From Chiloscyllium plagiosum (taxonomy: Eukaryota): a DNA stretch of 20,000 bases. The notes beneath the pieces were generated by a model. It was given only the letters and a program-made list of their open reading frames with translations, made no database searches and was not told the DNA's origin. The translations under genes and the position numbers were made by a program. The stretch lies in the NCBI RefSeq assembly GCF_004010195.1, contig NC_057718.1, positions 72,261,515-72,281,514 on the forward strand. The letters run 5' to 3'. Below, piece after piece: positions 601 to 20,000 of this stretch (positions within the stretch are counted from its first letter, which is position 1; each line of letters opens with the position of its first letter).

Positions 601-2319
601 GTACAGCACACCACAGGCCCTTTCGCCCTCTATGTTTTGAGGGCCTTCTATCCAACTCTAAGGTCAGACTAACCTATATAGCCTTCATTGTACTAACTTC
701 CATGTGCCTATCCAAGACCTTAAATGTACCTAATGCACCTGACTATACTACCACCGCTGGCAGTGCATTCCATGCAATCCATCGCTCTCTGGGTAAAGAA
801 CCTATTTCTGACATCTCCCCTAAACCTTCCTCCAATTATCTTAAAATTATGCCTCCAAATGATAGACATTTTCGCCATGGGAAAAAGTCTTTGGCTATTC
901 ATTCTGTGCAAGCCTCTCAATATCTTGTACACCTCTAACAAGTCACCTCTCTTCCTTCTTCACTCCAATGAGAAAAATCCTTGCTCCCTCAAACGTTCTT
1001 CATAAGCCATCTAGTCCAGGCAGCATCCTGGTAAATCTCCTCTGCACCCTCTCTCAAGCTTCCACATCTTTCCTATAATGAGGTGACCAGAACTGAACAC
1101 AATATTCCAAGTGTGTGGTCTAACCAGGACTCTGAACAGCTGCAGCATAACCTCACGGCTCTCAAACTCAATCCCCCTACTAATGAAAGCCAACACGCCA
1201 CGTACCTTCTTAATATATACCTGATGACCCTGGGTGGCAATTTTGAGGGATCTATGGACGTGGACCCCAAAATCCCTCTGTTCTTCCACACTGCCAAGAA
1301 ATCTGCTTTAAAACCTGTATTCTGCATTCAAATTTGACTTTCCAAAGTGAATGACTTCACATTTTTCCTAGTTGAACTCCATCTGCCACTTAGCAGCCCA
1401 GTTCTGCATGTCAATGTCTTGTTGCAACCTACAACAGCCCTCCACTCTATCCATAACTTCACCAACCTTTGTGTCACTGACAAACTTACTAACCCACTCT
1501 TCCACTTCCTCAGCCAAGTCATTCGTAAAAATCACAAACAGCAGATGTCCCAGAACCGATCCCTACGAAACACCACTCATCACCGAACTCCAGGCTGAAT
1601 ACTTTCCGTATGTCTTCTAAAGGGCCAGCCAATTCTGTATCCAGACAAACATTTTTCCCTGCATCCCATACCTACTTACTGTCTGAATGAGCCTATAATG
1701 GGAAACCTAATCAAACACCTTGCTAAAATCCATGTACATCACATCCATTGCTCTACTATCATCAACCTGTTTTGTCACATCCTCAAAGAATTCAGTAAGA
1801 TTTGAGAGGCATAACCTGCCCCTCTTAAAGCTATGCTGACTATCTCTAATAAAACTATGGTTTTCCAAGTAATCATAAATCCTGTCTCTCAATATCCTCT
1901 CCAATACTTTGCACACCACAGCCCTAAGACTGACTGGTCTGTAATTTCCAGGATTATTCCTATTCCCTTTCTTGAACAAGGGAATAACATTTGCCACCTT
2001 CAAAGCATCCGGCACTTTCCAATGGTCAGTGAGGACACAAAGATCATTGGCAAAGGTGCAGCAATCTCTTTCCTCGTTTCCTGTAATAACCTAGGGCACA
2101 TCCCGTCTGGCCAAGCGGATTTATTTATCCTTATGTTTTTCATCATTTTCGGCACATCCTCCTTCCTAACATCAAACTATGAGCATATCAGTCTATTTCA
2201 CACTGTCCCTCTCAGTAGTAAATACAGAAGCAAAATATTCATTGAGGACTTCTCCTACATTGTCCAACTACAGGCGTTAAGTTCCCTCCACTATCCCTGA
2301 TCGGCCATACTCTCACTTC

Positions 2320-2452
2320 CTCATTCCTGAAGAAGGGCTTATGCCCTAAACGTCGATTCTCCTGTTCCCTGGATGCTGCCTGACCTACTGCGCTTTTCCA
2401 GCAACACATTTTCAGCTCTGATCTCCAGCATCTGCAGACCTCACTTTCTCCT
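2320..2452 (+). mobile_element. Short PLE-terminus insert carrying a hammerhead motif, 14-bp TSD
   Basis: Perfect TSD catactctcacttc at 2306-2319 and 2453-2466. The body ...gatgctgcctgacct...ccagcatctgcagacctcactttctcc matches the 3' end of the longer PLE at 16749-16880. Confidence 0.9.
2322..2359 (+). ncRNA. Minimal type I hammerhead ribozyme motif with a G12-to-U core mutation
   Basis: CTGAAGA (2327-2333), A, stem II GGGC-TTAT-GCCC (2335-2346), then TAAA instead of GAAA, palindromic ACGT, predicted cleavage after GTC (2354). Confidence 0.75.
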
Positions 2453-3619
2453 CATACTCTCACTTCGGCCATCCACTTGATCCTCACTTAAGTGTAGAAC
2501 GACTTTGGGTTTTCCTTAATCCTAGCTGCTAAAACTTTTCCATGCCCCATTCTACCTCCAAGTTCATTGTTCAGTTCCTTCCTGGGTGCCTTGTAACCAC
2601 CTAAAGCCCTATTTGATCCTTGCCTCTTGAACCTTAAGTAAGCTTCCTTCTTCCTTTTGACTAGATGTCCCACATCCTTTGTCACCCAAGGTTCTGTCAA
2701 CCTATCTCTTCCTTACCTCAGTGGGACAAATCTTCCCAGCACTATCAGCAGGTGCTTTCTAACCAACCTCCACATTTCTGCTGTGCATTTCCCCGAGAAC
2801 AACTGTTCCCAATCAAGGCACACAGTTCCTACCTAATAGCACTGTAATGTCCCTTCCCCCAATTAAGTACTTTCCCATACCATCCGCTCCTATTGCTCTC
2901 CATGAATACAGTAAAGGTCAAGGAGTTGTGATCACTATTACTGAAATGCTCTCCCACCGAAAGATCTGACACCTGGCATGGTTCGTTGCCAAGCACCAAA
3001 TACAATATGGCCTCCCCTCTAATCGGCCTATCTATCTATTGAATCAGGAACCTTTCCTAGACACAACTGACAAAAATTGCTCCATCCAAACTATTTGAAC
3101 TAAGTACTAAAAAAAAGTAGGTTCCAATCAATGTTAGGAAAATTAAAGTCACCATGACAACAACCCTAACTATTACTTCTACACATTTCCAAAATCAGCC
3201 TGCCAATCTGCTCCTCAATGTCTCTGTTGCTACTGGGGGCAGGCAGAAATCTCCCACAAAAGTGATTGCTCCTTTCCTGTTTCTTCCACCCATACTGACA
3301 CTGTAGACAAATCCTCTTTGACGTTCTCCCTTTCTGCAGCTGTGATACTATCCCTCCACCTCCTTTACCTCCTGCCGCCAATTCCTTTTGAAACATCTAA
3401 CCCTGGAACATGCAACAACCATTCCTGCTCCTGTGATATCTAAGTCTCCGTAACGGCCGCAACATCATTGTTCCAACTATGCTCGAAGTTCATCAGCCTT
3501 ACTCTTGATACTAGTTGCATGAAAATAGACACACTTCAATCTCACATTAACTACAACTTTGCCCTATCAAGTGCTTATTGCTCCTCACAGACTCTCTGCA
3601 CACTGTATCTGGCTGTTCA

Positions 3620-3921
3620 CTGGTGGTTAGCACTGCTGTCTCAGTGCCAGAGACCCGGATTCAATTCCCGCCTCAGGCAACTGTCTGTGTGGAGTTTGCA
3701 CATTCTCCCTTGTGTCTGCGTGGATTTCCTCCGGGTGCTCTGGTTTCCTCCCACAGTCCAGAAATGTGCAAGTTAAGTGAATTGGCCATGCTAAATTGCC
3801 CGTAGTGTTAGGTGAAGTGGTAAATGTAGGGGAATGGGTCTGGGTGGGTTGCTCTTCAGAGGGTTGGTGTGGACTTTTTGGGCCGAAGGGCCTGTTTCCA
3901 CACTGTAAGTAATGTAACCTA
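3620..3921 (+). mobile_element. HE1-like tRNA-derived SINE, slightly 5'-truncated, inserted in CR1
   Basis: tRNA-like head tggttagcactgctgtctcag...ggattcaattccc (Pol III A/B-box-like), core gtgtggagtttgcacattctccc...ggtttcctcccacagtcc, CR1-type tail gggccgaagggcctgtttccacactgtaagtaat. Highly similar to four other copies in the window. Confidence 0.92.
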
Positions 3922-4789
3922 CTCCATCACCTGATCCATAGCTCAGGTTCCCACCCCCCCCTTGCCAATCTAGTTTAAATCCTCCTGAACAGCTCGAGCA
4001 AACCTCCCGCCCAGGATATTGGTGCTGCTCCAGTTCACGTACAACCGTCCTTCTTGTTCAGGTCCTACCTTCCCCAGAAGGCATCCCAATGATCCATATA
4101 TCTGAACCCCTCTCTCCTGCAGCCATGTGTTCAGCTACACTCGCGCTCTCTACTCCTCGCCTCATTAGCCCGTGGCGCCAGTAGCAATCTTGAGATTACT
4201 ACTCTGTTCATCCTGCTTTCCAGCTTCCAACCTAATTCCCGCTATTCTCTTTTCAGGTCTTCCTCCCTTTCCCTGCCTGTACCACAACTTCTGGCTGCTC
4301 TCCCTCATCCTGAAGAATCCTGTAGATGCAATCAATCAGAGACATCCCTGACCATGGCAGCCAGGAGGCAAATCACCATCTGGAGTCTCGCTTGCAACCA
4401 CAGAACCTCCTGTCTGTTCCTCCCACAATTAAATCTCCAATCACTATTGATCTCCTGTTCTCCCTGCTTCCCTTCTGAGCCACAGAGCCAGGTTCAGTGC
4501 CAAAACATGGCCGCTGTGGCTTTCCCCTGATCGATACTAACCCCACCCCCACCAACAATATTGACTTTAAAGCCATCTCTACAGTCCTAGTTATACAACT
4601 TACAAGGACAATGCTCCAGTCACTGATCTCAGAACATTTGGGCGAAGACTGCCACAAGGGTACAGTTCCCTTTCCTTAGTATTGGTCTCAAAGATTAAGT
4701 CTGTTTCCGAGTACATTACATTCAATGGAAATACAATACACTGAATACAAATACGTGGAGGCACTGAAGAAGTGAGACTTTTCCTGGTA

Positions 4790-5815
4790 TCTCAGCAATG
4801 GAAACAGACTCTTCGGTCCAACTAGTCCATGCTGACCATGTTCCCAAACTAAATTAGTCCCACCTGCCTGAGCTTGGCCCACATCCATCCACATCTTTCC
4901 TGTGCATGAACTTATCCAAATGTCTTTTAAACACTGTAAACGTACCTGCATCCACCACTTTCTCTGGTTGCTCATTTTACACACAAAAAGAAGTTGCCCC
5001 TTATGTCCTTTTTAAATCTTTCTCCTCTCACCTTTTTAACAAATGCCCCCCAGTTTTGAACTCTTCCACCACAGGGAAAAAAAACATGTCGTTCACCTTA
5101 TCTATTCCCATCACGATTTTATAATCTCGAAGTCACCCCTCAACCTTTTAGAATTCCAGTGAAAAAAGTCTCAGTCTTTTAAGTCTATTTGTACATTTCA
5201 AACCCTCCGTTCCTGGCATCATTTTGGTAAAATTTTCCTGAACCCTCTCCCGTTTAATAATATCTTAGAACAGAGTTGAGGAGAAACTTCTTCATCCAGA
5301 GAGTGGTGAGTGTGTGGAATGCTCTGCCCCAGAAGGCTGTGGAGGCCAAGTCTCTGGATACTTTCAAGAAAGAGTTGGATAGAGCTCTTAAGGTTAGTGG
5401 AATCAAGGGTTATGGGGATAAGGCACGAACAGGATACTGATTGAGGATGATCACCCATGATCACAATGAATGGTGGTGCTGGCTCGAAGGGCAGAATGGC
5501 CTACTCCTGCATCTATTGTCTATCTTTCCTATAACAGGGTGACCAGAAATGCACACAGTACTCTGGAATAGGCCTCACCAATGTTCTGCACAACCTTAAC
5601 ATGATGTCTCAACTCCTATACTCAAAGGTCTGAGTAATGAAGGCAAGCATGCTAAATGATGCAAATTTCAAAAAATTATGTACATTAGCCCCTTAGGTCT
5701 CTCTGTTTCACAACATTACCCAGAGCCCTAGCATTAATTGCATAAGTCCTGTCCTTGTTTGTATTACCAAAATGCAATACCTCATGTTTATCCAAATTAA
5801 ACTCCATCTGCCATA
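4790..5815 (-). mobile_element. 5'-truncated CR1 LINE (C-terminal ORF2 and 3' UTR)
   Basis: 3' hairpin region near 4800-4830 (ggaaacagactcttcggtcc). The body is homologous to the other CR1 copies up to aactccatctgcca (~5813). Confidence 0.85.
5267..5520 (+). mobile_element. CR1 3'-end fragment of a different subfamily, nested antisense in the CR1 at 4790-5815
   Basis: Encodes RTELRRNFFIQRVVSVWNALPQKAVEAKSL and ends in gaagggcagaatggcctactcctgcatctattgtc. 6-bp TSD tatctt at 5261-5266 and 5521-5526. Confidence 0.85.
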
Positions 5816-6294
5816 TCTGAATACTTTCTTTCCATCATCTCATTCAATTGTAGAAGTTAAGGCAAATGACTCACATTCCAATGACTAAAGGCACAAGCTC
5901 ATGACTGCCTGAAATATAAATGCAATTCTTTCCTTTCCCTCATTTGTGTCCCATTAATGGTCTACAAGGAAATGCTACAAATCTGTGTTTATATAGATAG
6001 TTTACTAAGTGCTAGAAAATATAAAATAATAGGATGGATTTCCTCAACTCGTTAGTGCCTCATTTCTAATGAGCATCACCCAACAGATGACATAATGCAG
6101 TGTTGGGAAACTGCCAGATTTCATAAAAAGTGCAGGATATAATCACATTCTACTGATATTGAACTTATGACAACACACTGCCTCACCATCTTCAACAACT
6201 TAAAGCTTTTTTTTTGAAGGGAGATCTAAACACAGAATGCACATTTTGCATTTCAAAAGAAATAATTTAATTCCATCAAATCAACTGACATTCA

Positions 6295-7758
6295 ACATGC
6301 AGTCACAGATCTACTGCACAGAAAATTGCCATTCAGGCATTGTGTTTGTGCTGGTCAAAAACAATCAAACTATTTCTATCCCACGTCCTAGCACGTGGTC
6401 TTGTGTGCCTTGGTAATGCAATTAATGTTACGTGGATTCGAGAAGTGCACAAATATTCAAGTTGTGGCCAAACCAAAATATTTTATACAGTTCCAGTATA
6501 ATTGCCCTGCTTTTAAACTCTATGCCTTGGCTACTAAAGGCAAGAATATCAGTACTCCTTTTTAACCACTTTATCCACTTGTGCTGATCCTTAAAGGAGC
6601 AGTGTGCATGCACACCAAAGTACCTATGATCCTCGGTGCTTCCCAGGACCAATCACATATTCCCTTGCTTAATTTGTCCTGCTTGAGTGCATCATCTCAT
6701 TTATCCAGACTGAATTCAATTCACCACTGATCAGCCCATCTGACCAGCTCATCTACATGCTCTTGTAGTCCAAGGCTACCTACCATTTTTGAATCATCTG
6801 CAAACTTATTGATCAACACTCCTACATTCAAATCTAAACCACTTATAATCATTTATAAAAGACACAAACAGCAAGCGCTTAACTCACTGATACCTGACTG
6901 GACAACACTTCCAGTTGGAAAAACATCCATGAACCATCACCCTCTGCTTCTCGCCATTCAGTCAATTGTGGATCTAATTTGCCAAAGGTCCTTGCATGCC
7001 ACGGGCTCTCAGTTAGTTATCAGTCTTCCATGCGAGACCTTATCAAAAACCTTGCTGAAGTAGAAACAGACTTCACCAAAAGCATTGCCCTCATCTACAC
7101 ACGTGGTCACCTCTTCGGAAAATTCAATTAAGTTGGTCAGACATGATCTCTCCCAAACAAAATTACTCTGATCTTGATGATTCTCTGCCTTTTCAAAGGT
7201 AGATTAATTCTTTCCCTCAGAATTTCTTCCAGTAATTTCCCCACCACTGAGGTTAGACTGACTGTCCTGTAGTGTCCTGTTTTATCCCTTGCTCCCTTCC
7301 TGAATGACATTACCACATTGGCTGTCCTCCAGCACCTCTCCTGTGGCCAGAGAGGAACTGAACATTTTTTAAAGCACCCTGCTATTTTCTCTCTTGTATC
7401 ACTCAACCTGGGATATATGTCATACAGCTCTTGAAATGGATCGACTTTTATATTTGCCAAACCACACAGAACATCCTCTCCATCTGTGCTAATTCCTTTA
7501 ATTGTATCACATTTTCCCTGATTTCTATACCCATATCTTCCCTTTCAATACCCATATCTTCCCTCTCAATACATCAAAGTATTAATTTAGAATCCTAACT
7601 CCAAACTCTGACTCTACACACAAATTATCACTGTATTCCTTAACAAATCTTACCTTTTCTCTTGTTATCCTTTTATCCTTAATGTATCTGTAAAACAACT
7701 TCATATTTTCCTTTATTTTACATGCCAGTATCTTTTCATTTCTCCTTTTAGCACTTCT
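6295..7758 (-). mobile_element. Old, internally deleted CR1 LINE (RT region and 3' end)
   Basis: Minus ORFs give VLGSTEDHRYFGVHAH (6428-6652), RTANVVMSFRKGARDKTGHYRTVSLTSVVGKLLEEILRERI (7137-7460) and KIKENMKLFYRYIKDKR (7582-7860). Confidence 0.85.
7527..7568. repeat. 21-bp tandem duplication inside CR1
   Basis: atacccatatcttccctttca (7527-7547) followed by atacccatatcttccctctca (7548-7568), one mismatch. Confidence 0.9.
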
Positions 7759-7779
7759 TATAGAGTCATAGAGGTGTGC

Positions 7780-7902
7780 GGGGAGAAAGTGAGGTCTGCA
7801 GACGCTGGAGATCAAAGCTGAAACTTTATTGCTGGAACAGCACAGCAGGTCAGGCAGCATCTAGGGAACAGAAGATTCGACGTTTCGGGCACATGCCCTT
7901 CT
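7780..7902 (-). mobile_element. Short PLE-terminus insert carrying a hammerhead motif, 14-bp TSD
   Basis: TSD tcatagaggtgtgc at 7766-7779 and 7903-7916. Minus strand reads (tg)aagaagggcatgtgcccgaaacgtcgaatc...gcagacctcactttctcc. Confidence 0.9.
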
Positions 7903-7905
7903 TCA
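7874..7905 (-). ncRNA. Minimal hammerhead ribozyme motif, 5'-truncated within the CUGA turn
   Basis: Minus strand: aTGAAGA A GGGC-ATGT-GCCC GAAA CGTC gaatc. Stem II, GAAA and GUC are intact, but C3 and the stem I 5' strand are replaced by target DNA. Confidence 0.75.
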
Positions 7906-8782
7906 TAGAGGTGTGCAACATGGACACAGGCCCTTTGGCCCAACTTGCCCATGCCACCCAGCTTTCACAATTGAACTAGTCCCATTTGCCTGCAATCAGT
8001 CCATATCTCTCCAACCTATCCCATCCATGTAACTATCATGTTTTTTAAATTATAAAATTGTACTAACTTCCATTACTACTTCTGGTGGCCTGTTCCAAAC
8101 ACTGATCACTACTTGTATGAAAAACAATGCCCCCCTACGCCCATTTATATCTCTCCCTTCTCACTTTCAATCTACACCCTCTAGATTTAGACTCTCCTAT
8201 CATGGGAAAAAAAGCTGTTAGCTATCTGCCTTATTTCTGTCTCTCACGATTCTCTTCAAGGCCATTCCTCAGTTTCTTATGCTGCAGGGAAAGACGTCCC
8301 AGCCTATCCAACCTCTCCTTATAAGTTAAACCTTCCAGTCCAGGTAGCATCCTAGTAAATTTTTTCTGCACTCTTCCTAGTTTAATAATATCCTTTCTTT
8401 CTCGGGTGACCTGAACTACATGCAGTACTCCAAATGTCACCTCACCAATGTCTTGTGCAACAAGATGTACCAGCTTCTACACTCACTGCTCTAACTAATG
8501 AAAGCAAGCATGCTGAAAGCCTTCTTCACCATAGTGTCCAGCTGTGACCTTACTTTCAAGGAGCTATGAACCTGTACCACTGAATCTCTTTGTTCTATAA
8601 CACATCCTAGAGCCCTATACAAGTCCTGTCCTGCTTTGATTTACCAAAATGCAATACCTTGCATTTACCTAAGTTAACCTCCACCTGCCATTCCTCAACC
8701 CAATGGCACACTTGATCAAGATCTTATTGCATTTCCACATAACCTTCTTACACTGTCCACTTTTTTGCCAATCTTGGTGTCA

Positions 8783-8901
8783 GAGACAAAAATAAAACTG
8801 CAGGTGCTGGAATCCAAAGTAGATAAGCAAGAGGCGGAAGAGCACAGCAAGCTGGGCAGCATCAGGAAGGGGAGAAGTTAACTTTTTGGGTGTTACCCTC
8901 C
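8783..8901 (-). mobile_element. Short, older PLE-terminus insert of a different subfamily, with degenerate hammerhead, 8-bp TSD
   Basis: TSD tggtgtca at 8775-8782 and 8902-8909. Minus strand begins gagggtaacacccaaaaagttaacttctcc (decayed stem II and GAAACGTC), then gatgctgcccagcttgctgtgctcttcc...ccagcacctgcag. Confidence 0.75.
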
Positions 8902-9567
8902 TGGTGTCATCCACAAACTTACTAACCATATCTCCTAAATTCTCATCCAAATCATATGTAAATAACAAATAACAGCGCACCCAGCACTGATGTCTGTGGC
9001 ACACTGCTGGTCAGAGGGCTCCAGTCTGAAATACAACCCTCTACCACTATCCTCTGCCTTCTACCTTTTAAGCCAATTTTGTATCCAATTGACTAGCTCG
9101 CCTTGATTTTGTGAAACTTAACTTTATTCATCAATCTACCACGTGGTACCTTGTCAAGGGCTTGCTGAAATACATATCGACAATGTCTACATCATGTACT
9201 TTCTTGGTCACCCGTTCAAAAACCTCAATCCAATTCGCGAGACAAATTTCCCATGCTGACTATCGTAAGAGTCTTTGCCTCTCAAAATGCCTATAGATCC
9301 TATCTCAAAATCCCCCTAACAACGTACCTACTGCTGATGTTATGCTCAACGATGGGTTTTGTCAAGCATTTCCTTGTAGCCTTTCTTAAATACTATCACA
9401 ACATTAGTCACCCTCCAAACCTTCGGGCACTTCATCCCTGGTTGTTGATGATAAAAATGTCTCTGCTAGGCTGCCTGCAATTTCCTCCCTAGCCTCATTC
9501 AAACTCCTGAGATACACTTCTCAGGTCCTGAGGACTATTCTACCTTAATACGTTTTAAGACTTCCAG

Positions 9568-10159
9568 GGAAAAGACTTTGCCTACTTATCCTATCCATGC
9601 CCCTCATAATTTTGTAAACCTCTATAAGGTCACCCCTCAGCCTCTGACACTCCAGGGAAAACAGCCCCAGCCTGTTCAGCCTCTCCCTGTAGCTCAAATC
9701 CTCCAACCCTGGCAACATCTTTGTAAATCTTTTCTGAACCCTTTCAAGTTTCACAACATTTTTCCGATAGGAAGGAGACCAGAATTGCACACAATATTCC
9801 AACAGTTGCCTAACCAATGTCCTGTACAGCCGCAACGTGACCTCCCAACTCCTGTACTCAATACTCTGACCAATAAAGGAAAGCATACCAAACACCTTCT
9901 CCACTATCCTATCTACCTGCGACTCCACTTTCAAGGAGCTACGAACCTGCAGTCCAAGGTCTCTTTGTTCAGCAACACTCCCTAGGACCTTACCATTAAG
10001 TGTATAAGTCCTGCTAAAATTTGCCTTCCCAAAATGCAGCACCTCACATTTATCTGAATTAAACCCCATCTGCCACTTCTCAGCCCATTGGCCCATCTGG
10101 TCAAGATCCTATTGTAATCTGAGGTAACCCTCTTCGCTGTCCAGTACACCTCCAATTTT
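9568..10159 (-). mobile_element. Well-preserved internal CR1 ORF2 C-terminal fragment (both ends missing)
   Basis: Uninterrupted ORF 9545..10096: QWAEKWQMGFNSDKCEVLHFG...QRDLGLQV...LYRTLVRQLLEYCVQFWSP...RLRGDLIEVYKIMRG. Confidence 0.92.
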
Positions 10160-11054: not shown

Positions 11055-11578
11055 TGGTAAGAGTAATAAAAAGATGGGGTACTGGGCTAACGGTCGGATA
11101 CTTGGTAGTGTGGATGAGCAGAGGGATCTTGGTGTCCATGTACACAAATCTTTGAAAGTTGCCACCCAGGTAAATAGTGCGGTGAAGAAGGCAGATGGCG
11201 TACTGAGGTCATGTTGCAGTTGTATAAGACTCTGGTGCGGCCACATCTGGAGTATTGTGTGCAGTCTTGGTCGCCATACTATAGGAAGGATGTGGAGGCA
11301 CTGGAACGGGTGCAGAGGAGGTTTACCAGGATGTTGCCTGGTATGGTAGAAAGATCGTATGAGGAAAGACTGAGACACTTAGGGCTGTTTTCATTAGAGA
11401 AAAGAAGGTTTAGGGGTGACTTGATAGAGGTGTACAAGATGATAATTATGGGCATTTAAGCGGGCGTTGGATAGGCATATGGAGGATAGTGGGCTAGTGT
11501 AGGTTAGGTGGGCTTGGATCGGCGCAACATCGAGGGCCGAAGGGCCTGTACTGCGCTGTATTCTTCTATGTTCTATGT
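11055..11578 (+). mobile_element. 5'-truncated CR1 LINE with internal deletions and (TTCTATG)n tail
   Basis: ORFs give NGRILGSVDEQRDLGVHVHKSLK (11074-11349) and LYKTLVRPHLEYCVQSWSPYYRKDV...RGDLIEVYK (11211-11459). The 3' end is gggccgaagggcctgtactgcgctgtattcttctatgttctatg. Confidence 0.92.
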
Positions 11579-11908: not shown

Positions 11909-12221
11909 GATTAGATTACTTACAGTGTGGAAAAAGGCCCTTCGGCCCAATAAGTCCACACCTACCCGCCGAAACGCAACCCACCCAGACCCATTCCCCT
12001 ACATTTACCTCTTCACCTAACACTACGGGCAATTTAGCATGGCCAATTCACCTAACCTGCACATTTTTGGATTGTGGGAGGAAACCGGAGCACCCGAAGG
12101 AACCCACGCAGACACGGGGAGAATGTGCAAACTCCACACAGAGTCGCCTGAGGCGGGAATTGAACCCAGGTCTCTGGCGCTGTGAGGCAACAGTGCTAAC
12201 CACTGTGCCATCGTGCCACCC
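11909..12221 (-). mobile_element. HE1-like SINE, full length
   Basis: Reverse complement runs gggtggcacgatggcacagtggttagcactgttgcctcacagcgccagagacctgggttcaattccc...gggccgaagggcctttttccacactgtaagtaatctaatc. Confidence 0.95.
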
Positions 12222-13224
12222 ACAAATCAATACTGAATCAATACTGTCTACAAAATCAATGCTTTCAATGGAAGACATGAAAAGTACATAATTGCGCCTG
12301 TTTATTTGAAAACAACTGGCCAGGAGTATCAACAATATAATGTTTAAAACCTTCATACTTCTTTGCAATTGGAGTGTGGGAGGGAAATAAAACCATCATA
12401 ATTTTAAGGTATCAACTACATTCCAAAGTCGTGACCAGAATACTGATCAACAGTAACTTTATACCAAGTTCATGCTGTTTTTGTTTTTCAGAGGATTGAG
12501 ATCCTCACCTGCCATGTTGGTAGATAGCATGCAAAATTTGATGCTGCCTCCTCAATTACTGCATTGCAACATTGCTCCAAGAGGCATTTAGAGGGATGAG
12601 AAATTCCTGCCAATTTCTTGGAATTTGAACTTTTGGAGACTGGATTCCCACTTTTGGAAATATGCTTCCAACTTCTGCATACAGTCCATACAGCATTGAA
12701 GTAGTTGACATACATCTCACTTTAAACATTTTAGAAAGGACGCAATGTGACTTTGCAGGTTCTAAATACAACAGCAGAAAAGGAACAGATTGCTATTAGT
12801 TCTGGTAGAAGGGGTTGTGTATGTGCAGTGTGTCTGTTCCTGACCGCCAGTTCGATGTGTAGCTGTGTTCTGCTAGTTAAGGAGGAAGGGATTGAATGCA
12901 GCCTCTGAACATCACAAAGTGCAGATTTCTTCCACAGTTCAGAGATCAGATTTAGTCTAGAGAATGGGCGAGACCTCACTGAATATAGAAGAAAATCAGG
13001 TGGCTGTCAGTTGACATCCAGAGAGCATAGTTTGCAAACACTATGTAAAATGTATAACTGTGCAGCTTTTATTTCCTCTCTTCTGCTTTCCAACTTTCCA
13101 AGTCAAATCTGCCTAAAGCAAAACAATTTTTTTCTCAATCCATTAATTCAAGAATCCTGTAGGCAATAATTGATGACAGCTCTGTTTAAGGCAGTTGTGT
13201 ATCCTTGGGTTCTTTCCACCATTA

Positions 13225-13430: not shown

Positions 13431-13650
13431 TTACTTTTCTTCATTCCACCCCAACATGACTAAATGAATTATTTTACACAGGTGAGGAGAAAGCCTCTCC
13501 ACTAAACAAAGGGGAACAGACACGTTTGTACATTTAACCCACCTTTAGTTATTACAAACCAATTATAGTATTAATTAATTACATACACATCCAATCAAGT
13601 TAATCGTGTGGCTTCATGATAAATCCATGGACATCTTTACTTCATATTCT

Positions 13651-14069
13651 GGGCATAAGCACTTCATCAGGAATGTGGAAGGAGAAGGGAGCTGACAGAT
13701 AAGTAGGAGGGTGGATGGGGCTGGGGGCATATTAGGTGGGATGGTGATAGGTGGATGCAGGTGGGAAGTAATTAGGTGGGGAAGGTGGAATGGATAGGTG
13801 GGAAGGAAGATGGATGGGTAGGACAGGTCAAAACAGAGGTGTCAAATTGGAGGGTTGGATCTGAGATGAGTGGGGGAAGGGAGATTTGGAAACTGGTGAA
13901 GTCAGTGTTGATGCCGTGTGGTTGTAGGGTCCTGAGACAGAAGGTGAGACGTTCTTCCTCCAGTTTGTGGGTGGCTTTGATTTGGTGGTGGACGATTTGT
14001 ACGTCTTTAGGGGAGTGTGAGGGAGAGCTGAAGTGGTTCATCACTGGGCAGTGGAATTGTTGGTGCGTG
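13651..14069 (-). mobile_element. Penelope-like element 3' fragment (GIY-YIG C-terminus, C-rich UTR, truncated hammerhead)
   Basis: ORF 13772..14125 contains HFSSPSHSPKDVQIV...KLEEERLTFCLRTLQPHGINTDFTSF. The minus strand ends cattcCTGATGAagtgcttatgccc (13675-13651) with GAAA lost. Confidence 0.88.
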
Positions 14070-14850
14070 CTACCACTCAAAATATACTTCCCTCCCCACT
14101 CCGAGATGCATTCTGCAGAGACCATTCCCTCTGTGACTCATTTGTTAGGTCCTTGTCCCTGCCAATCCACCCTTCACAAATAGCACCTTCCCTTGCCGCC
14201 ACACGAGGTGTAAAACCTCCATCCAAGACCCTAAAGGATCATTTCAAATTCGGCAGAGATTTTCCTGCACGTCCACTGGTCTCATTTACTGCATCCGTTG
14301 CTCTCGGTGTTGTCTCCTCTACATCGGGGAGACAGAGTGCCAACGTGCAGAGCGGTTCAGGGAACATCTCTGGTCCACACATACCGAACAACCCCACCGC
14401 CCTGTGGCCAAACACTTCAACTCTCCCAAAGACATGCCAATCCTGGCCCTCCTCCACCGCCAGCTGCAGGAAGAATGCCTTACCTTCCACCCTGGCACCC
14501 TACGACCACACAGCATCAACATCGACTTCACCAGTTTTCAAATTCGCGTCACTTCATCCCCGGTCCAAAACGCCAACTCGGCACCTCCATCTTGACCTGT
14601 TCTACCCATCCCATTTTCCTTCCTACCTATCCACTTCACCATCCCCACTAACACATCACAATTACCTCTCACCTGCATCAACCAATCGCCATCCCATCTA
14701 CCTTCCCCCCGCCTTACCTTGAGCACCCTATTTATCTCTTTGCCTCCTTTCCCGCTACATTGCTGGTGGAGACCGTTTGCCCAGAATGCCGACTCTCCTG
14801 CTCCTTGGATGCTGCCTGACATGCTGCACTTTTCCAGCACCACACTTTTT
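14070..14850 (+). mobile_element. Penelope-like element 3' half (linker, GIY-YIG, UTR, degenerate hammerhead)
   Basis: Translations TTQNILPSPLRDAFCRDHSLCDSFVRS, FSCTSTGLIYCIRCSRCCLLYIGETECQRAERFREHL (~14260-14370) and HFNSPKDMPILALL...GTLRPHSINIDFTSFQI. Terminal motif gatgctgcctgac...ttccagcaccacac lies at 14808-14845. Confidence 0.9.
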
Positions 14851-15612: not shown

Positions 15613-15680
15613 TTTAGTAAAGAACAATTGAGATAATCATAAATGAGTTTCTACATTCATAGCTGGGTAAGTATAAAGTG

Positions 15681-15978
15681 TGGGCGGCGCAGTGGCACAG
15701 TGGTTAGCACTGTTGCCTCACAGCGCCAGAGACCTGGGTTCAATTCCCGCCTCAGGTGACTGACTGACACGTTCTCCCCGTGTCTGCATGGGTTTCCTCC
15801 GGGTGCTCCGCTTTCCTCCCACATTCCAAAGATGTGCAGGTCAGGTGAATTGGCCATGCTAAATTGCCCGTACTGTTGGGTAAGGGGTAAATGTAGGGGT
15901 ATGGGTGGGTTGCGCTTCGGTGGGTCAGTGTGGACTTGTTGGGCTGAAGGGCCTGTTTCCACACTGTAATGTAATCTA
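15681..15978 (+). mobile_element. HE1-like SINE with a small internal deletion
   Basis: gggcggcgcagtggcacagtggttagcactgttgcctcacagcgccagagacctgggttcaattccc...gggcctgtttccacactgtaatgtaatctaa. It lacks tgtggagtttg relative to the other copies. Confidence 0.95.
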
Positions 15979-16748: not shown

Positions 16749-17720
16749 GGAGAAAGTGAGGACTGCAGATACTGGAGATCAGTCAAAAGGTGTGGTGGTG
16801 GAAAAGCACAGTTGGTCAAGCAGCACCTGAAGAGCAAGAGAGTCGACGTTTCAAGCACAAGGTATTCATCAGGAATGTGGGGTTGGGGGGTGGGGGATGG
16901 CAAGGGGGCTGAAGAGATAAATGTGAGGGGTTGGGGCTGAGGGGGGGAAAGTAGCTGGGAATGCAATAGCTAGATGAAGATGGAGGGTGATGGTGATAGG
17001 TCAGAATGGAGAGTGTAGCAGATAAGTGGGAAGGAAGATGGACAGGTCAGTCATTCAAGAGGCTGGTTCAGAGTTGATGGGTTGGATCTGGGATAAGGTG
17101 AGGGGAGAGGAGATGAGGAAACTTGTGAAATCAACATCGATTCCATGTGGTTGGAGGGTCCTGAGGCGGAAGAGGTGCCAGGCATTGAGTGGCTAGGATT
17201 TTGCGGTGGAGGCGGCCCAGGACATGCCTGCCCTTGGCAGAGTGGGAGGAGGAGTTGAAGTATTCGGCCACAGGGCGGTGGGGTTGTTTAGTGCATGTGT
17301 CCCATAGATGTTCTCTGAAATGTTCCACAAATTGCTGTCCTGTCATCCCAATGTAGAGGGGACCACATAGAGAGCAACAGACACAGTAGATGATGTGTGG
17401 GGAAGTGCAGGAAAATCTCTGTCAAATGTAGAAGGATCTTTTGGGGCCTTGAATGGAGATGAGGGGGGAGGTGTGGGTGCAGGTTTTACACCTCTTGCGG
17501 TGGCAAGAGACAGTGCCGGGTGTGGAGGGTGAGTTGGGGGTCGGAGGTGGGGGGTGGGGCGTGGGGCCTAATAAGGGAGTCAAGGAGGGAATGATCTATA
17601 TTTATGGAGAAAAATATATCTCTGGTGGTGGAGTCTGTTTGTAGGTAGTGGAAATGATGGAGGAAGATGCATTGTATGCTGAGGTTGGTGGGTTGGAAGG
17701 TGAGGACCAGGGGGTTCTGG
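16749..17720 (-). mobile_element. Penelope-like element 3' half with intact 3' terminus
   Basis: Minus strand gives RFSCTSPHIIYCVCCSLCGPLYIGMTGQQFVEHFREHL...PVAEYFNSSSHS (GIY-YIG) and LVLTFQPTNLSIQCIFLHHFHYLQTDSTTRDIF. It ends gcagtcctcactttctcc, like the mini-inserts. Confidence 0.92.
16840..16877 (-). ncRNA. Hammerhead ribozyme motif with intact catalytic core but decayed stem II
   Basis: Minus strand: cattc CTGATGA ataccttgtgctt GAAA CGTC gactc (core spans 16872 to 16845). Confidence 0.7.
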
Positions 17721-19687
17721 AGAGTGTGGATATTTGTGGATGTGGTGCCAATCAAGTGGACTGCTCTTTCCTAGATGGTGTCAGGTTTCTTGAGTATTAC
17801 TGGTGTTGAAAGTGGAGAATATTCCATCACACTCTGGGACTTGTGTCTTGTAGATGGTGCACAGGTTTTGGGGACTCAAGAAGAGAACATTTCAGTATTC
17901 TGAGCCTCTGACTTGCTTTAGTAACCAACACATTTATAAGGCGAGTCTAGTTGCGTTTCCGATCAATGGTAACCCTCCATGATATTGACAGTTCGGTGAT
18001 GGTAACAATATTAAATGTCAAGGAGTAGTGGTTAGATTATGTCTCACTAGAAATGGTCATTGTCTGACATATTTACAGCTTGAATGTTACCTGCCATTTC
18101 TCAGCCCAAGCCTGGAATTTGTTACATTTGGACATGTGCAGCTTCAATATCGGAGTCGTCCCAAATGGTGCTGAACGTTGTGTGATCATTGGTGCACATC
18201 CCTACTTCTTACCTTACGATGGTGAGAAGATCATTGATGAAGCAGCTGAGGATAATTGGGTCTAGGACACTATCCTGAGGATCTCCTGCAGAGATATCCT
18301 GCAATTGAGATGACTGACTTCCAATAACCTGAATCATCTTCCTATGTGCCAGATGTGACTCCAACCAGTAGAGAATGTTCCCCTAATTCCCATTGATTCA
18401 ACTTTTGTTAGGATTCCTTGGTGGGTGGCACGCTGACACAGCGGTTAGCACTGTTGCCTCACAGCGCCAGAGACCCGGGTCCAAATCCCGCCTCAGGCAA
18501 CTGTCTGTGGAGTTTGCACATTCTCCCCATGTCTGCGTGGGTTTCCTCCGGGTGCTCCAGTTTCCTCCCACAGTCCAAAAATGTGCAGGTTAGGTGAATT
18601 GGCCATGCTAAATTGCCCGTAGTGTTAGGTGAGGGGGTAAATGTAGGGGAATGGGTCTGGGTGGTTGCTCTTCGGAGGGTCGGTGTGGACTTGTTGGGCC
18701 GAAGGGCCTATTTCTACACTGTAAGTAATCTAAATTTAAATAGAGTAATCTAAATCTAAATATGGCCCCACTGTCAACTTCACCTCACATTGGAAATTCA
18801 GCTCTTTTGTTCATGTCTGAACCAAAGTAAGGAGAGAATGGTTCTGGTGGGCCCCAAGCTAGGCATCAGTGAGCAGGTTGCTTTTAAGTAGGTGATGCTC
18901 GATAGCACTTTTAATGGCACCTTCCACCTCTCTCTGATGATTGAGAGTAGACTGATGGGGTGGTTATTGATCAGGTTGGATTTGTCCTGCTTTTTATGTA
19001 CAGGATATGCCTGATCAAATTTCCACATGTCAGGCAGATGTCAGTGTTGTAGCTGTACTGGAAGAGCTTGGCTAGGGTTGCAGCAAGTTCTGGAGCACAA
19101 ATTTTCAGTATGCTGTCTGGATTATTATTACAGCCCACAGCTTGTTCAAGGCCTCCACCATGGAGTGAACTGGATTGGTTGAACACTGGCATCTGTGATG
19201 CTGCAGACCCCTGTAGGAGGCAGAGATTGATCATCCTCTCAGCACTGTTGGTTGAAGATTGTTGCAAATGCTTCAGTCTTATCTTTTGCACTGATGTACT
19301 GGTTTCTTCCATCATTGCAAATGGGGATATTTGTTGAGCCAGCTCCTCAAGTGAACTGTCCACCACCATTCACAACTGGATGTGGCAGGACTGCAAAGCT
19401 TGCATCTGATCCGTTGGTTATAGGTTCAGTAAGTTATCAATCACTTGTAGCTTTTGCTTTTAGGCACACAAGTAACCCTGTTTGGTAGTTTCACCAGTTT
19501 GACATCTCAATTTTAGGTGTACTTGATGGTGCTCCTGGAATGCCTTCCTGCAGTCTCCATTGAACCGAGATTAATCTCCTGGTTTGATGGTAATGGTTGA
19601 GCGAGGGATATGCCAAGCTATGAGGTTGCAGATTGTGTTCAAGAATGATTCTGATGCTGTTGATAGCACACAGATCTTCATGGATGC
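17721..19687 (-). mobile_element. Degenerate LINE of a second, distinct CR1/L2-group family (RT region), interrupted by a SINE
   Basis: Minus ORFs give ITIKPGD (19571-19819), ILKICAPELAATLAKLFQYSYNT (18971-19369) and PVHKKQDKSNLINNHPISLLSII (18798-19028). GDPQDSVLDPIILSCFINDL occurs near 18230-18290 and IYKTQVPECDGIF/LIGTTSTNIH near 17725-17860. Confidence 0.85.
18422..18760 (+). mobile_element. HE1-like SINE, full length
   Basis: Same head, core and tail as the other copies; tail is gtaagtaatctaaatttaaatagagtaatctaaatctaaa. Confidence 0.95.
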
Positions 19688-19826: not shown

Positions 19827-19844
19827 AATTTAAATGGATATATG

Positions 19845-20000
19845 TGGGCGGCACGGTGGCACAGTGGTTAGCACTGCTGCCTCGCAGCGCCAGAGACCCG
19901 GGTTCAATTCCCGACTCAGGCGACTGACTGTGTGGAGTTTGCACGTTCTCCCCGTGTCTGCGTGGGTTTCCTCCGGGTGCTCCGGTTTCCTCCCACAGTC
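19845..20000 (+). mobile_element. HE1-like SINE 5' half (runs off window end), CpG-rich and probably young
   Basis: gggcggcacggtggcacagtggttagcactgctgcctcgcagcgccagagacccgggttcaattcccg...ggtttcctcccacagtc. Confidence 0.95.

Follow-up and report, generated by a model that had tools for sequence, protein, structure and literature searches.

Short insertions of a Penelope-like end module with a hammerhead motif in the genome of Chiloscyllium plagiosum

Minimal hammerhead ribozymes in the repeats of Penelope-like elements (PLEs), PLE tails, solo truncated copies and PLE-derived retrozymes are all already known. Here, we describe three short insertions (stubs) of such a PLE end module, composed of a hammerhead motif and a tail, in a stretch of repeat-rich vertebrate DNA from Chiloscyllium plagiosum (20,000 nt of contig NC_057718.1, henceforth the window).

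Among the described systems, truncated units of endonuclease-bearing (EN+) PLEs of the Neptune type (PMC8557442, PMC3846280) resemble the present copies in several respects: the end module is shared with long GIY-YIG copies, a distance of 33–40 nt separates two 3′ ends (the known tail measures 30–40 bp), a tail-less inverted arm occurs, target site duplications (TSDs) span 8–14 bp, and one long copy has a linker of the CX2-5CxxC type. In contrast to those units, the copy number is very high here, and many copies are cut down to the stretch from hammerhead to tail. Solo minimal hammerheads of metazoan PLEs (PMC4209133) likewise show a minimal type I motif with an extra base before stem II, a short stem I and a palindromic stem III, and are mostly single copies; the accessible text gives approximately 2,000–9,000 motifs per genome and contains neither a mapping of insertion ends nor a mention of sharks. 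The Poseidon element PAc from Anolis carolinensis (PMC11167929, henceforth the anole element) is comparable with regard to internal priming approximately 85–100 nt past the cut, two start sites that define the tail, and an uncleaved template. It differs in clade, as judged by the linker motif, and its open reading frame (ORF) starts in stem II, whereas the candidate ATG described here lies 19 nt past the predicted cut. Non-long terminal repeat (non-LTR) retrozymes (PMC7229834; bioRxiv 10.64898/2026.07.22.740005) share with the stubs a small size, a non-coding nature, a type I hammerhead, a PLE origin and TSDs of >4 bp. They are tandem repeats of 150–450 bp units, each with a mostly canonical hammerhead, and give rise to circular RNAs, whereas the stubs are monomers with broken minimal motifs. 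In the literature covered, which was partial and excluded Dfam and Repbase, no account of 5′ clustering at PLE hammerheads or of these shark stubs was found; Fig. S2 of PMC11167929 (genomic end coverage) may show a similar step.

Three insertions of the PLE end module

The initial annotation of the window had proposed three independent short inserts with TSDs of 14, 14, and 8 bp of their own, and the coordinates and lengths were found to be exact (inserts A, B, and C, Table 1). In a chance control with 5000 random window segments of 119–133 bp, abutting exact repeats of ≥8 bp or ≥14 bp occurred in none; with a slack of 5 nt allowed, they occurred in 6 and 2 segments, respectively. Empty sites were identified for two of the inserts. 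A paralogue in the window of the CR1 long interspersed nuclear element (LINE) hosting insert C aligns across the locus with a single gap of 127 columns, equal to 119 + 8. At the locus of insert A, where an empty site is expected to lack 147 bases (133 + 14), contigs of two sequencing runs omit net 147 (156 − 9, run X9) and 148 bases (163 − 15, run X14). These empty sites confirm two of the three inserts, and all three represent genuine insertions of their own. The last 3 nt of the 5′-side TSD of insert B are identical to the hammerhead UGA, representing a 3-nt microhomology. Inserts A and B share 107 of 122 positions (88%). Insert C is only 57–59% like them (68/119 to A, 70/119 to B) and therefore belongs to another subfamily; speaking of one family, as proposed initially, is overstated.

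A profile search of the window revealed five copies bearing the module (A to E) and one partial copy (F). Copies D and E run 700–990 bp upstream into GIY-YIG coding remnants, which match proteins with reverse transcriptase (RT) and GIY-YIG domains strongly, with Pfam scores below the cut-off; the nearest named PLE proteins are labelled Chiloscyllium punctatum. The end module of D and E is 72–79% identical to A and B, in line with the earlier assignment of the inserts as terminal segments of PLEs, and C is tied to PLEs solely by a likeness of 49–59%. The EN+ PLE features found were a terminal repeat linked to GIY-YIG, an optional tail and a minimal hammerhead. The linker of copy E reads C-x4-C-x2-C, with the first Cys taken from the sequence directly upstream of the translated stretch. 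A CX2-5CxxC linker between RT and endonuclease is a feature of Neptune, and that of Nematis is similar (PMC8557442). By this motif of copy E, the inserts are assigned to the end module of Neptune-type PLEs. Arms D and F form an inverted PLE unit (13646–14848) in which the break of F falls within the hammerhead, past stem II, and D reaches only to the short, tail-less 3′ site; inverted units without tail have been described (PMC3846280, PMC8557442). A search for TSDs of D/F and E gave no convincing pair. The ATG-led frame from position 2373 is a candidate PLE ORF start and would fit a terminal repeat overlapping it, as in rotifer PLEs, in which the repeat overlaps the ORF start (PMC3846280).

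Table 1. Features of the PLE-derived copies in the window
Feature	Position	Strand	Remarks
Insert A, PLE end module (hammerhead and tail)	2320..2452	+	133 bp; within CR1 fragment
TSDs of insert A	2306..2319 (left), 2453..2466 (right)	+	exact, 14 bp
Insert B, PLE end module	7780..7902	-	123 bp; same subfamily as A; from hammerhead N7
TSDs of insert B	7766..7779 (3′ side), 7903..7916 (5′ side)	-	exact, 14 bp
Insert C, end module	8783..8901	-	119 bp; different, diverged subfamily; from approximately N7/G8; within CR1 fragment
TSDs of insert C	8775..8782 (3′ side), 8902..8909 (5′ side)	-	exact, 8 bp
Minimal type I hammerhead motif of A	2323..2358	+	from inspection and family letters; layout as in PMC4209133
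Stem I of A hammerhead	2323-2326/2355-2358	+	one mismatch
Core of A hammerhead	2327-2333	+
Stem II of A hammerhead	2335-2338/2343-2346	+
Palindromic stem III of A hammerhead	2350-2353	+	predicted cut after 2354
Candidate PLE ORF start	2373..2452	+	frame led by ATG, without stop up to the 3′ end; shared by A–D
Optional tail between two 3′ end sites	2413..2452	+	approximately 33–40 nt; D ends near 2412
Arm F, inverted PLE piece	13646..14119	-	end of GIY-YIG region, upstream repeat, hammerhead to stem II; without tail
Arm D, long 5′-truncated PLE piece	14149..14848	+	GIY-YIG region and end module without tail
Copy E, long 5′-truncated PLE	16749..17740	-	approximately 990 bp; linker, GIY-YIG, hammerhead, full tail
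TATA-like heptamer/initiator-like A in D	14729..14757	+	heptamer 14729; A 14757, 6 nt before C3
TATA-like heptamer/initiator-like A in F	13705/13676	-
TATA-like heptamer/initiator-like A in E	16923/16878	-

Ends of the end module and state of the hammerhead

Genome-scale evidence was obtained from four public runs aligned to window positions 2240–2539, with the insert A locus as reference. They included contig runs (X1, X9, and X14) with three organism labels (A, B, and C) and poly(A) single-cell RNA reads; contig counts for X1 and X14 are lower bounds, the loose ends listed are the best 24 of 1057 rows, and the joints listed are 12 of 176. The PLE end module is very abundant, with tens of thousands of aligned contigs per run under three species labels (75,733, 90,281, and 58,408 contigs), where summed contig depth does not equal copy number and serves only for the statement "very abundant."

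The main 3′ loose ends, which have low-agreement flanks, were found in at least 2277 contigs at 2451–2453 (X1), in at least 1649 at 2452–2453 (X14), and in 892 at 2452 (X9) among the rows listed. A second group of 3′ loose ends was observed at 2407–2412; in a variant of the family, part of it runs on for approximately nine letters. Joints duplicating 33–39 nt of the tail (2450 to 2418 and 2454 to 2420, among the joints listed) and strand-flip joints between 2412 and 2452 (at least 27, at least 13, and 1 contigs) place this second 3′ end 33–40 nt from the first. The stretch between the two sites is the PLE tail, which has been tied to two internal RT start sites (PMC11167929). In a few X1 contigs, a local tandem duplication of 33–39 nt of the tail was observed (window 2418–2456). 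The distance from the predicted cut to the main 3′ end is 98 nt; for the anole element, a distance from cut to RT start of 85–92 nt was worked out from the figures given in PMC11167929. Head-to-tail joints from 2452/2453 to 2322–2327 were present in at least 26 (X1), at least 11 (X14), and 3 (X9) contigs, corresponding to roughly 1% of the 3′ junctions in X1 (26 versus 2277, both being lower bounds). All copies of the module in the window are monomers. RNA reads were found on both strands, with approximately 800 and 1300 reads at the plateau, which matches the expectation for passengers in host transcripts. Among the RNA rows listed, reads did not accumulate at the cut site, poly(A) single-cell reads being poorly suited to small circles.

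At the 5′ side, insert A starts 7 nt ahead of hammerhead C3, B at N7, and C at approximately N7/G8, so that two of the three inserts begin inside the ribozyme core; the gathering of 5′ ends at the hammerhead, as claimed before, was thus reproduced. Three of the five module-bearing window copies measure 119–133 bp and two >700 bp, with none in between. When smooth truncation was simulated, three ends fell within any 15-nt span in 0.3–6.7% of the trials, and three clustered ends together with two long copies were obtained in <0.1%. Seven of the 12 joints with known spacers (12 of 176 rows listed) restart at 2323–2325 after 1–12 letters. Two transcribed loci meet unrelated sequence, one at approximately 2319 and the other, judging from its clipped letters, inside the core. 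The RNA depth drops to 0.54 of the plateau at 2330–2339, whereas clipping alone gave 0.83–0.91. It was fitted best by a model with ends confined to 2322–2360 (relative root mean square deviation (RMS) of 0.051 versus 0.113 for smooth truncation), with no ends in the tail and approximately 2% per base across the hammerhead. Judging from the window copies, the joints listed, and the RNA depth, rather than from a genome-wide count, the 5′ ends likely lean toward the upstream edge of the hammerhead.

The hammerhead was called according to the description of minimal hammerheads in PMC4209133. In insert A, G12 is replaced by T at 2347; B lacks C3 together with the 5′ strand of its stem I; and C has also lost G12, in addition to its start near N7/G8. 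An intact core was found in none of the three inserts. Thus, of the proposal that they begin at a hammerhead ribozyme, the motif was retrieved and the intact core was not. Across the family, G at 2347 accounts for 78–87% of the aligned contig depth, and the variants listed are mostly of the CpG type. An Rfam scan of the window gave no hammerhead match at E ≤ 1. Stem covariation in six copies was no better than in shuffles and not significant, and neither were the folding z-scores of six stretches, which ranged from −1.64 to +1.48. No further copies were retrieved by a pattern scan of viral and metagenome contigs. A second motif scan yielding 114 metagenome loci and one viral locus was dropped, as none of the 115 matched past the motif (blastn). 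Among the X14 joints listed, three repeat just the hammerhead (2354 to 2323, 2358 to 2323 with a depth of 669, and 2364 to 2323); they possibly represent tandem doublets able to fold as a dimer in cis.

Origin of the short copies

The sequence retained upstream of the predicted cut amounts to 35 nt in A, 24 nt in B and, by alignment, about the same in C. Therefore, cleaved linear RNA was not the template, as had been concluded in the initial annotation from such retained sequence. In agreement, uncleaved RNA was the dominant substrate of the anole element in vitro, cleavage was not needed, and ribozyme mutants left insertion unchanged (PMC11167929).

On balance, we lean toward the explanation that the inserts are separate, TSD-generating insertions of the PLE end module from uncut RNA, with RT priming approximately 100 nt past the cut and running off at the RNA 5′ end just before the hammerhead. 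In this scheme, the PLE RT/GIY-YIG protein would nick the target and prime internally at one of the two tail sites, as in the anole element. The template RNA would start approximately 6 nt before C3, driven by the terminal-repeat promoter of a long copy, whether full or truncated. Copying would end at the RNA 5′ end, giving a "strong-stop"-like cDNA of 90–135 nt, of which the first 0–25 nt may often be lost on joining (compare the microhomology at insert B). Long copies would arise where priming falls at the downstream repeat, and stubs, which have neither an upstream promoter nor the sequence past the priming site, would be dead on arrival. An initiator-like A 6 nt ahead of C3 is present in all three long arms (D, E, and F). 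It is spaced from an upstream TATA-like heptamer by 28–29 nt in D and F and by 45 nt in E; such a pairing occurs at 9 of the 464 initiator sites of the window. Both calls follow general promoter consensus sequences.

Several observations weigh against run-off copying. The promoter argument is weak because the motifs were recognized post hoc, represent one ancestral observation, and have lost their spacing in E. B, C, and some RNA reads begin 5–25 nt inside the predicted RNA start, and molecule starts were not seen to pile up. A model without true ends, in which the hammerhead is diverged in half of the copies, still fits the RNA depth at 0.081, and all such fits rest on expression-weighted reads and on an assumed rather than a known aligner. 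In the contig data, where the reference is a stub, long copies and copies ending at 2320–2323 are indistinguishable, and in each DNA run the six highest-ranking loose-end rows contain no 5′ pile at 2320–2325. The largest 5′ pile, at 2348, was rejected as a true 5′ end, being a clipping artefact beside a private change of A. Its loose parts are short (median 47–66 versus 176–255 for most 3′ rows), which suggests that many copies run on upstream in repeated DNA. As to the candidate ORF start, no protein beginning with the tail frame was recognized by eye among 72 proteins, and a search for such proteins gave two candidates, none at E ≤ 10.

A truncation hot spot is a possible but less probable source of the stubs. 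In this case, RT on a long read-through PLE RNA, or second-strand joining, would fail preferentially at the hammerhead, be it folded or bound by protein, or at a stretch rich in pyrimidines just upstream of it. Most PLE insertions have indeed been described as 5′-truncated and as carrying only one terminal repeat (bioRxiv 10.64898/2026.07.22.740005), solo minimal hammerheads have been read as probably truncated PLEs (PMC4209133), the 5′ ends spread over 2320–2360 rather than falling on one base, and inverted arm F likewise breaks in the hammerhead. However, a structural block would meet the 3′ strand of stem I and stem II first (2358–2343), whereas insert A, the RNA locus at 2319, and 7 of the 12 joints listed traverse the entire motif and halt at its upstream edge; furthermore, when the hammerhead of A was folded, stem II alone formed and helix I was weak. 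RT ending at the hammerhead, the second of the options considered initially, comes closer than a discrete unit, but the ends reach or lie within the upstream half of the motif, which would fit run-off better than stalling on arrival at a structure. Splicing at the hammerhead edge, where a canonical acceptor has been reported for D. virilis (PMC4209133), was rejected for this family: upstream of C3, the closest CAG ends at a distance of 22 nt in F and 37 nt in E, and D contains none.

The first option, a retrozyme or a discrete SINE-like unit (SINE, short interspersed nuclear element), was not borne out by stubs that are mostly monomers, stem from at least two subfamilies, share their 3′ ends with long copies, and begin inside the core in two of three cases; they are probably not a separate ribozyme element. 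That some short copies are masters with an internal promoter, moved in trans by a PLE protein, appears unlikely. A and B do hold common changes against D and E, and C at 2369, the variant of A and B, reaches up to 42% of the depth under organism label A, as opposed to ≤8% under C and ≤3% under B; by this skew, a young lineage-specific subfamily exists. Moreover, pLTR sequences suffice for trans-mobilization (PMC3846280), and examples of non-autonomous PLEs, among them MRC1, have been described (PMC8557442). The long copies compared are, however, old, so that variants shared by A and B do not show independence; the subfamilies of the stubs are only 57–59% alike, there is neither a fixed 5′ end (2320, 2331, and approximately 2331) nor one consensus, and both 3′ ends are common to stubs and long copies. 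No tRNA genes were called in the window. Stubs also stop at the priming site, whereas the anole element needs approximately 55–60 nt of RNA beyond it, since the first 172 nt of its ORF are required and RT starts at 111–118 (PMC11167929). Least probable of all, and very doubtful, is a non-LTR retrozyme, in which tandem 130-bp units would self-cleave as dimers, circularize, and be reverse-transcribed to monomers. Retrozymes originate from PLE repeats and have been found in the sole chondrichthyan sampled (bioRxiv 10.64898/2026.07.22.740005), and head-to-tail joints do exist here, three of those listed having spacers of 2–5 letters. Against this stand the low share of such joints in X1, the lack of an intact core in the inserts, and the RNA rows without a cut-site pile, poly(A) reads being a poor test; with monomers throughout the window and head-to-tail joints rare, the stubs therefore fall outside the retrozyme definition. 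A bolder proposal, that the C2369 subfamily is a self-propagating, ribozyme-headed element of 130 bases with an internal promoter, fed partly by cleaving and circularizing tandem dimers and hence a retrozyme at birth, is improbable; if true, this unit would be among the smallest retroelements mobilized by Penelope-like enzymes.

Sequence context and implications

CR1-type LINE fragments were located at window positions 1011–2800, 7000–7760, 8200–9200, 9545–10140, and 11075–11570. Insert B sits in the 3′ repeat of a further element, which is itself nested in a CR1 fragment. In addition, the window contains five tRNA-like SINE copies (3615–3915, 11911–12225, 15679–15975, 18420–18730, and 19843–20000) that are 76–95% alike in the aligned stretches and resemble shark HE1.

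The value of these copies lies in their scale; they do not constitute a new class of element, and they offer a useful data set to PLE specialists. If the stubs are run-off copies, which we favor to the extent given above, the genome provides a natural map of PLE RT start and stop sites on a very large scale. This map would bear on the transcript starts of vertebrate PLEs, on hammerhead cutting in vivo, and on the rebuilding of the terminal repeats.

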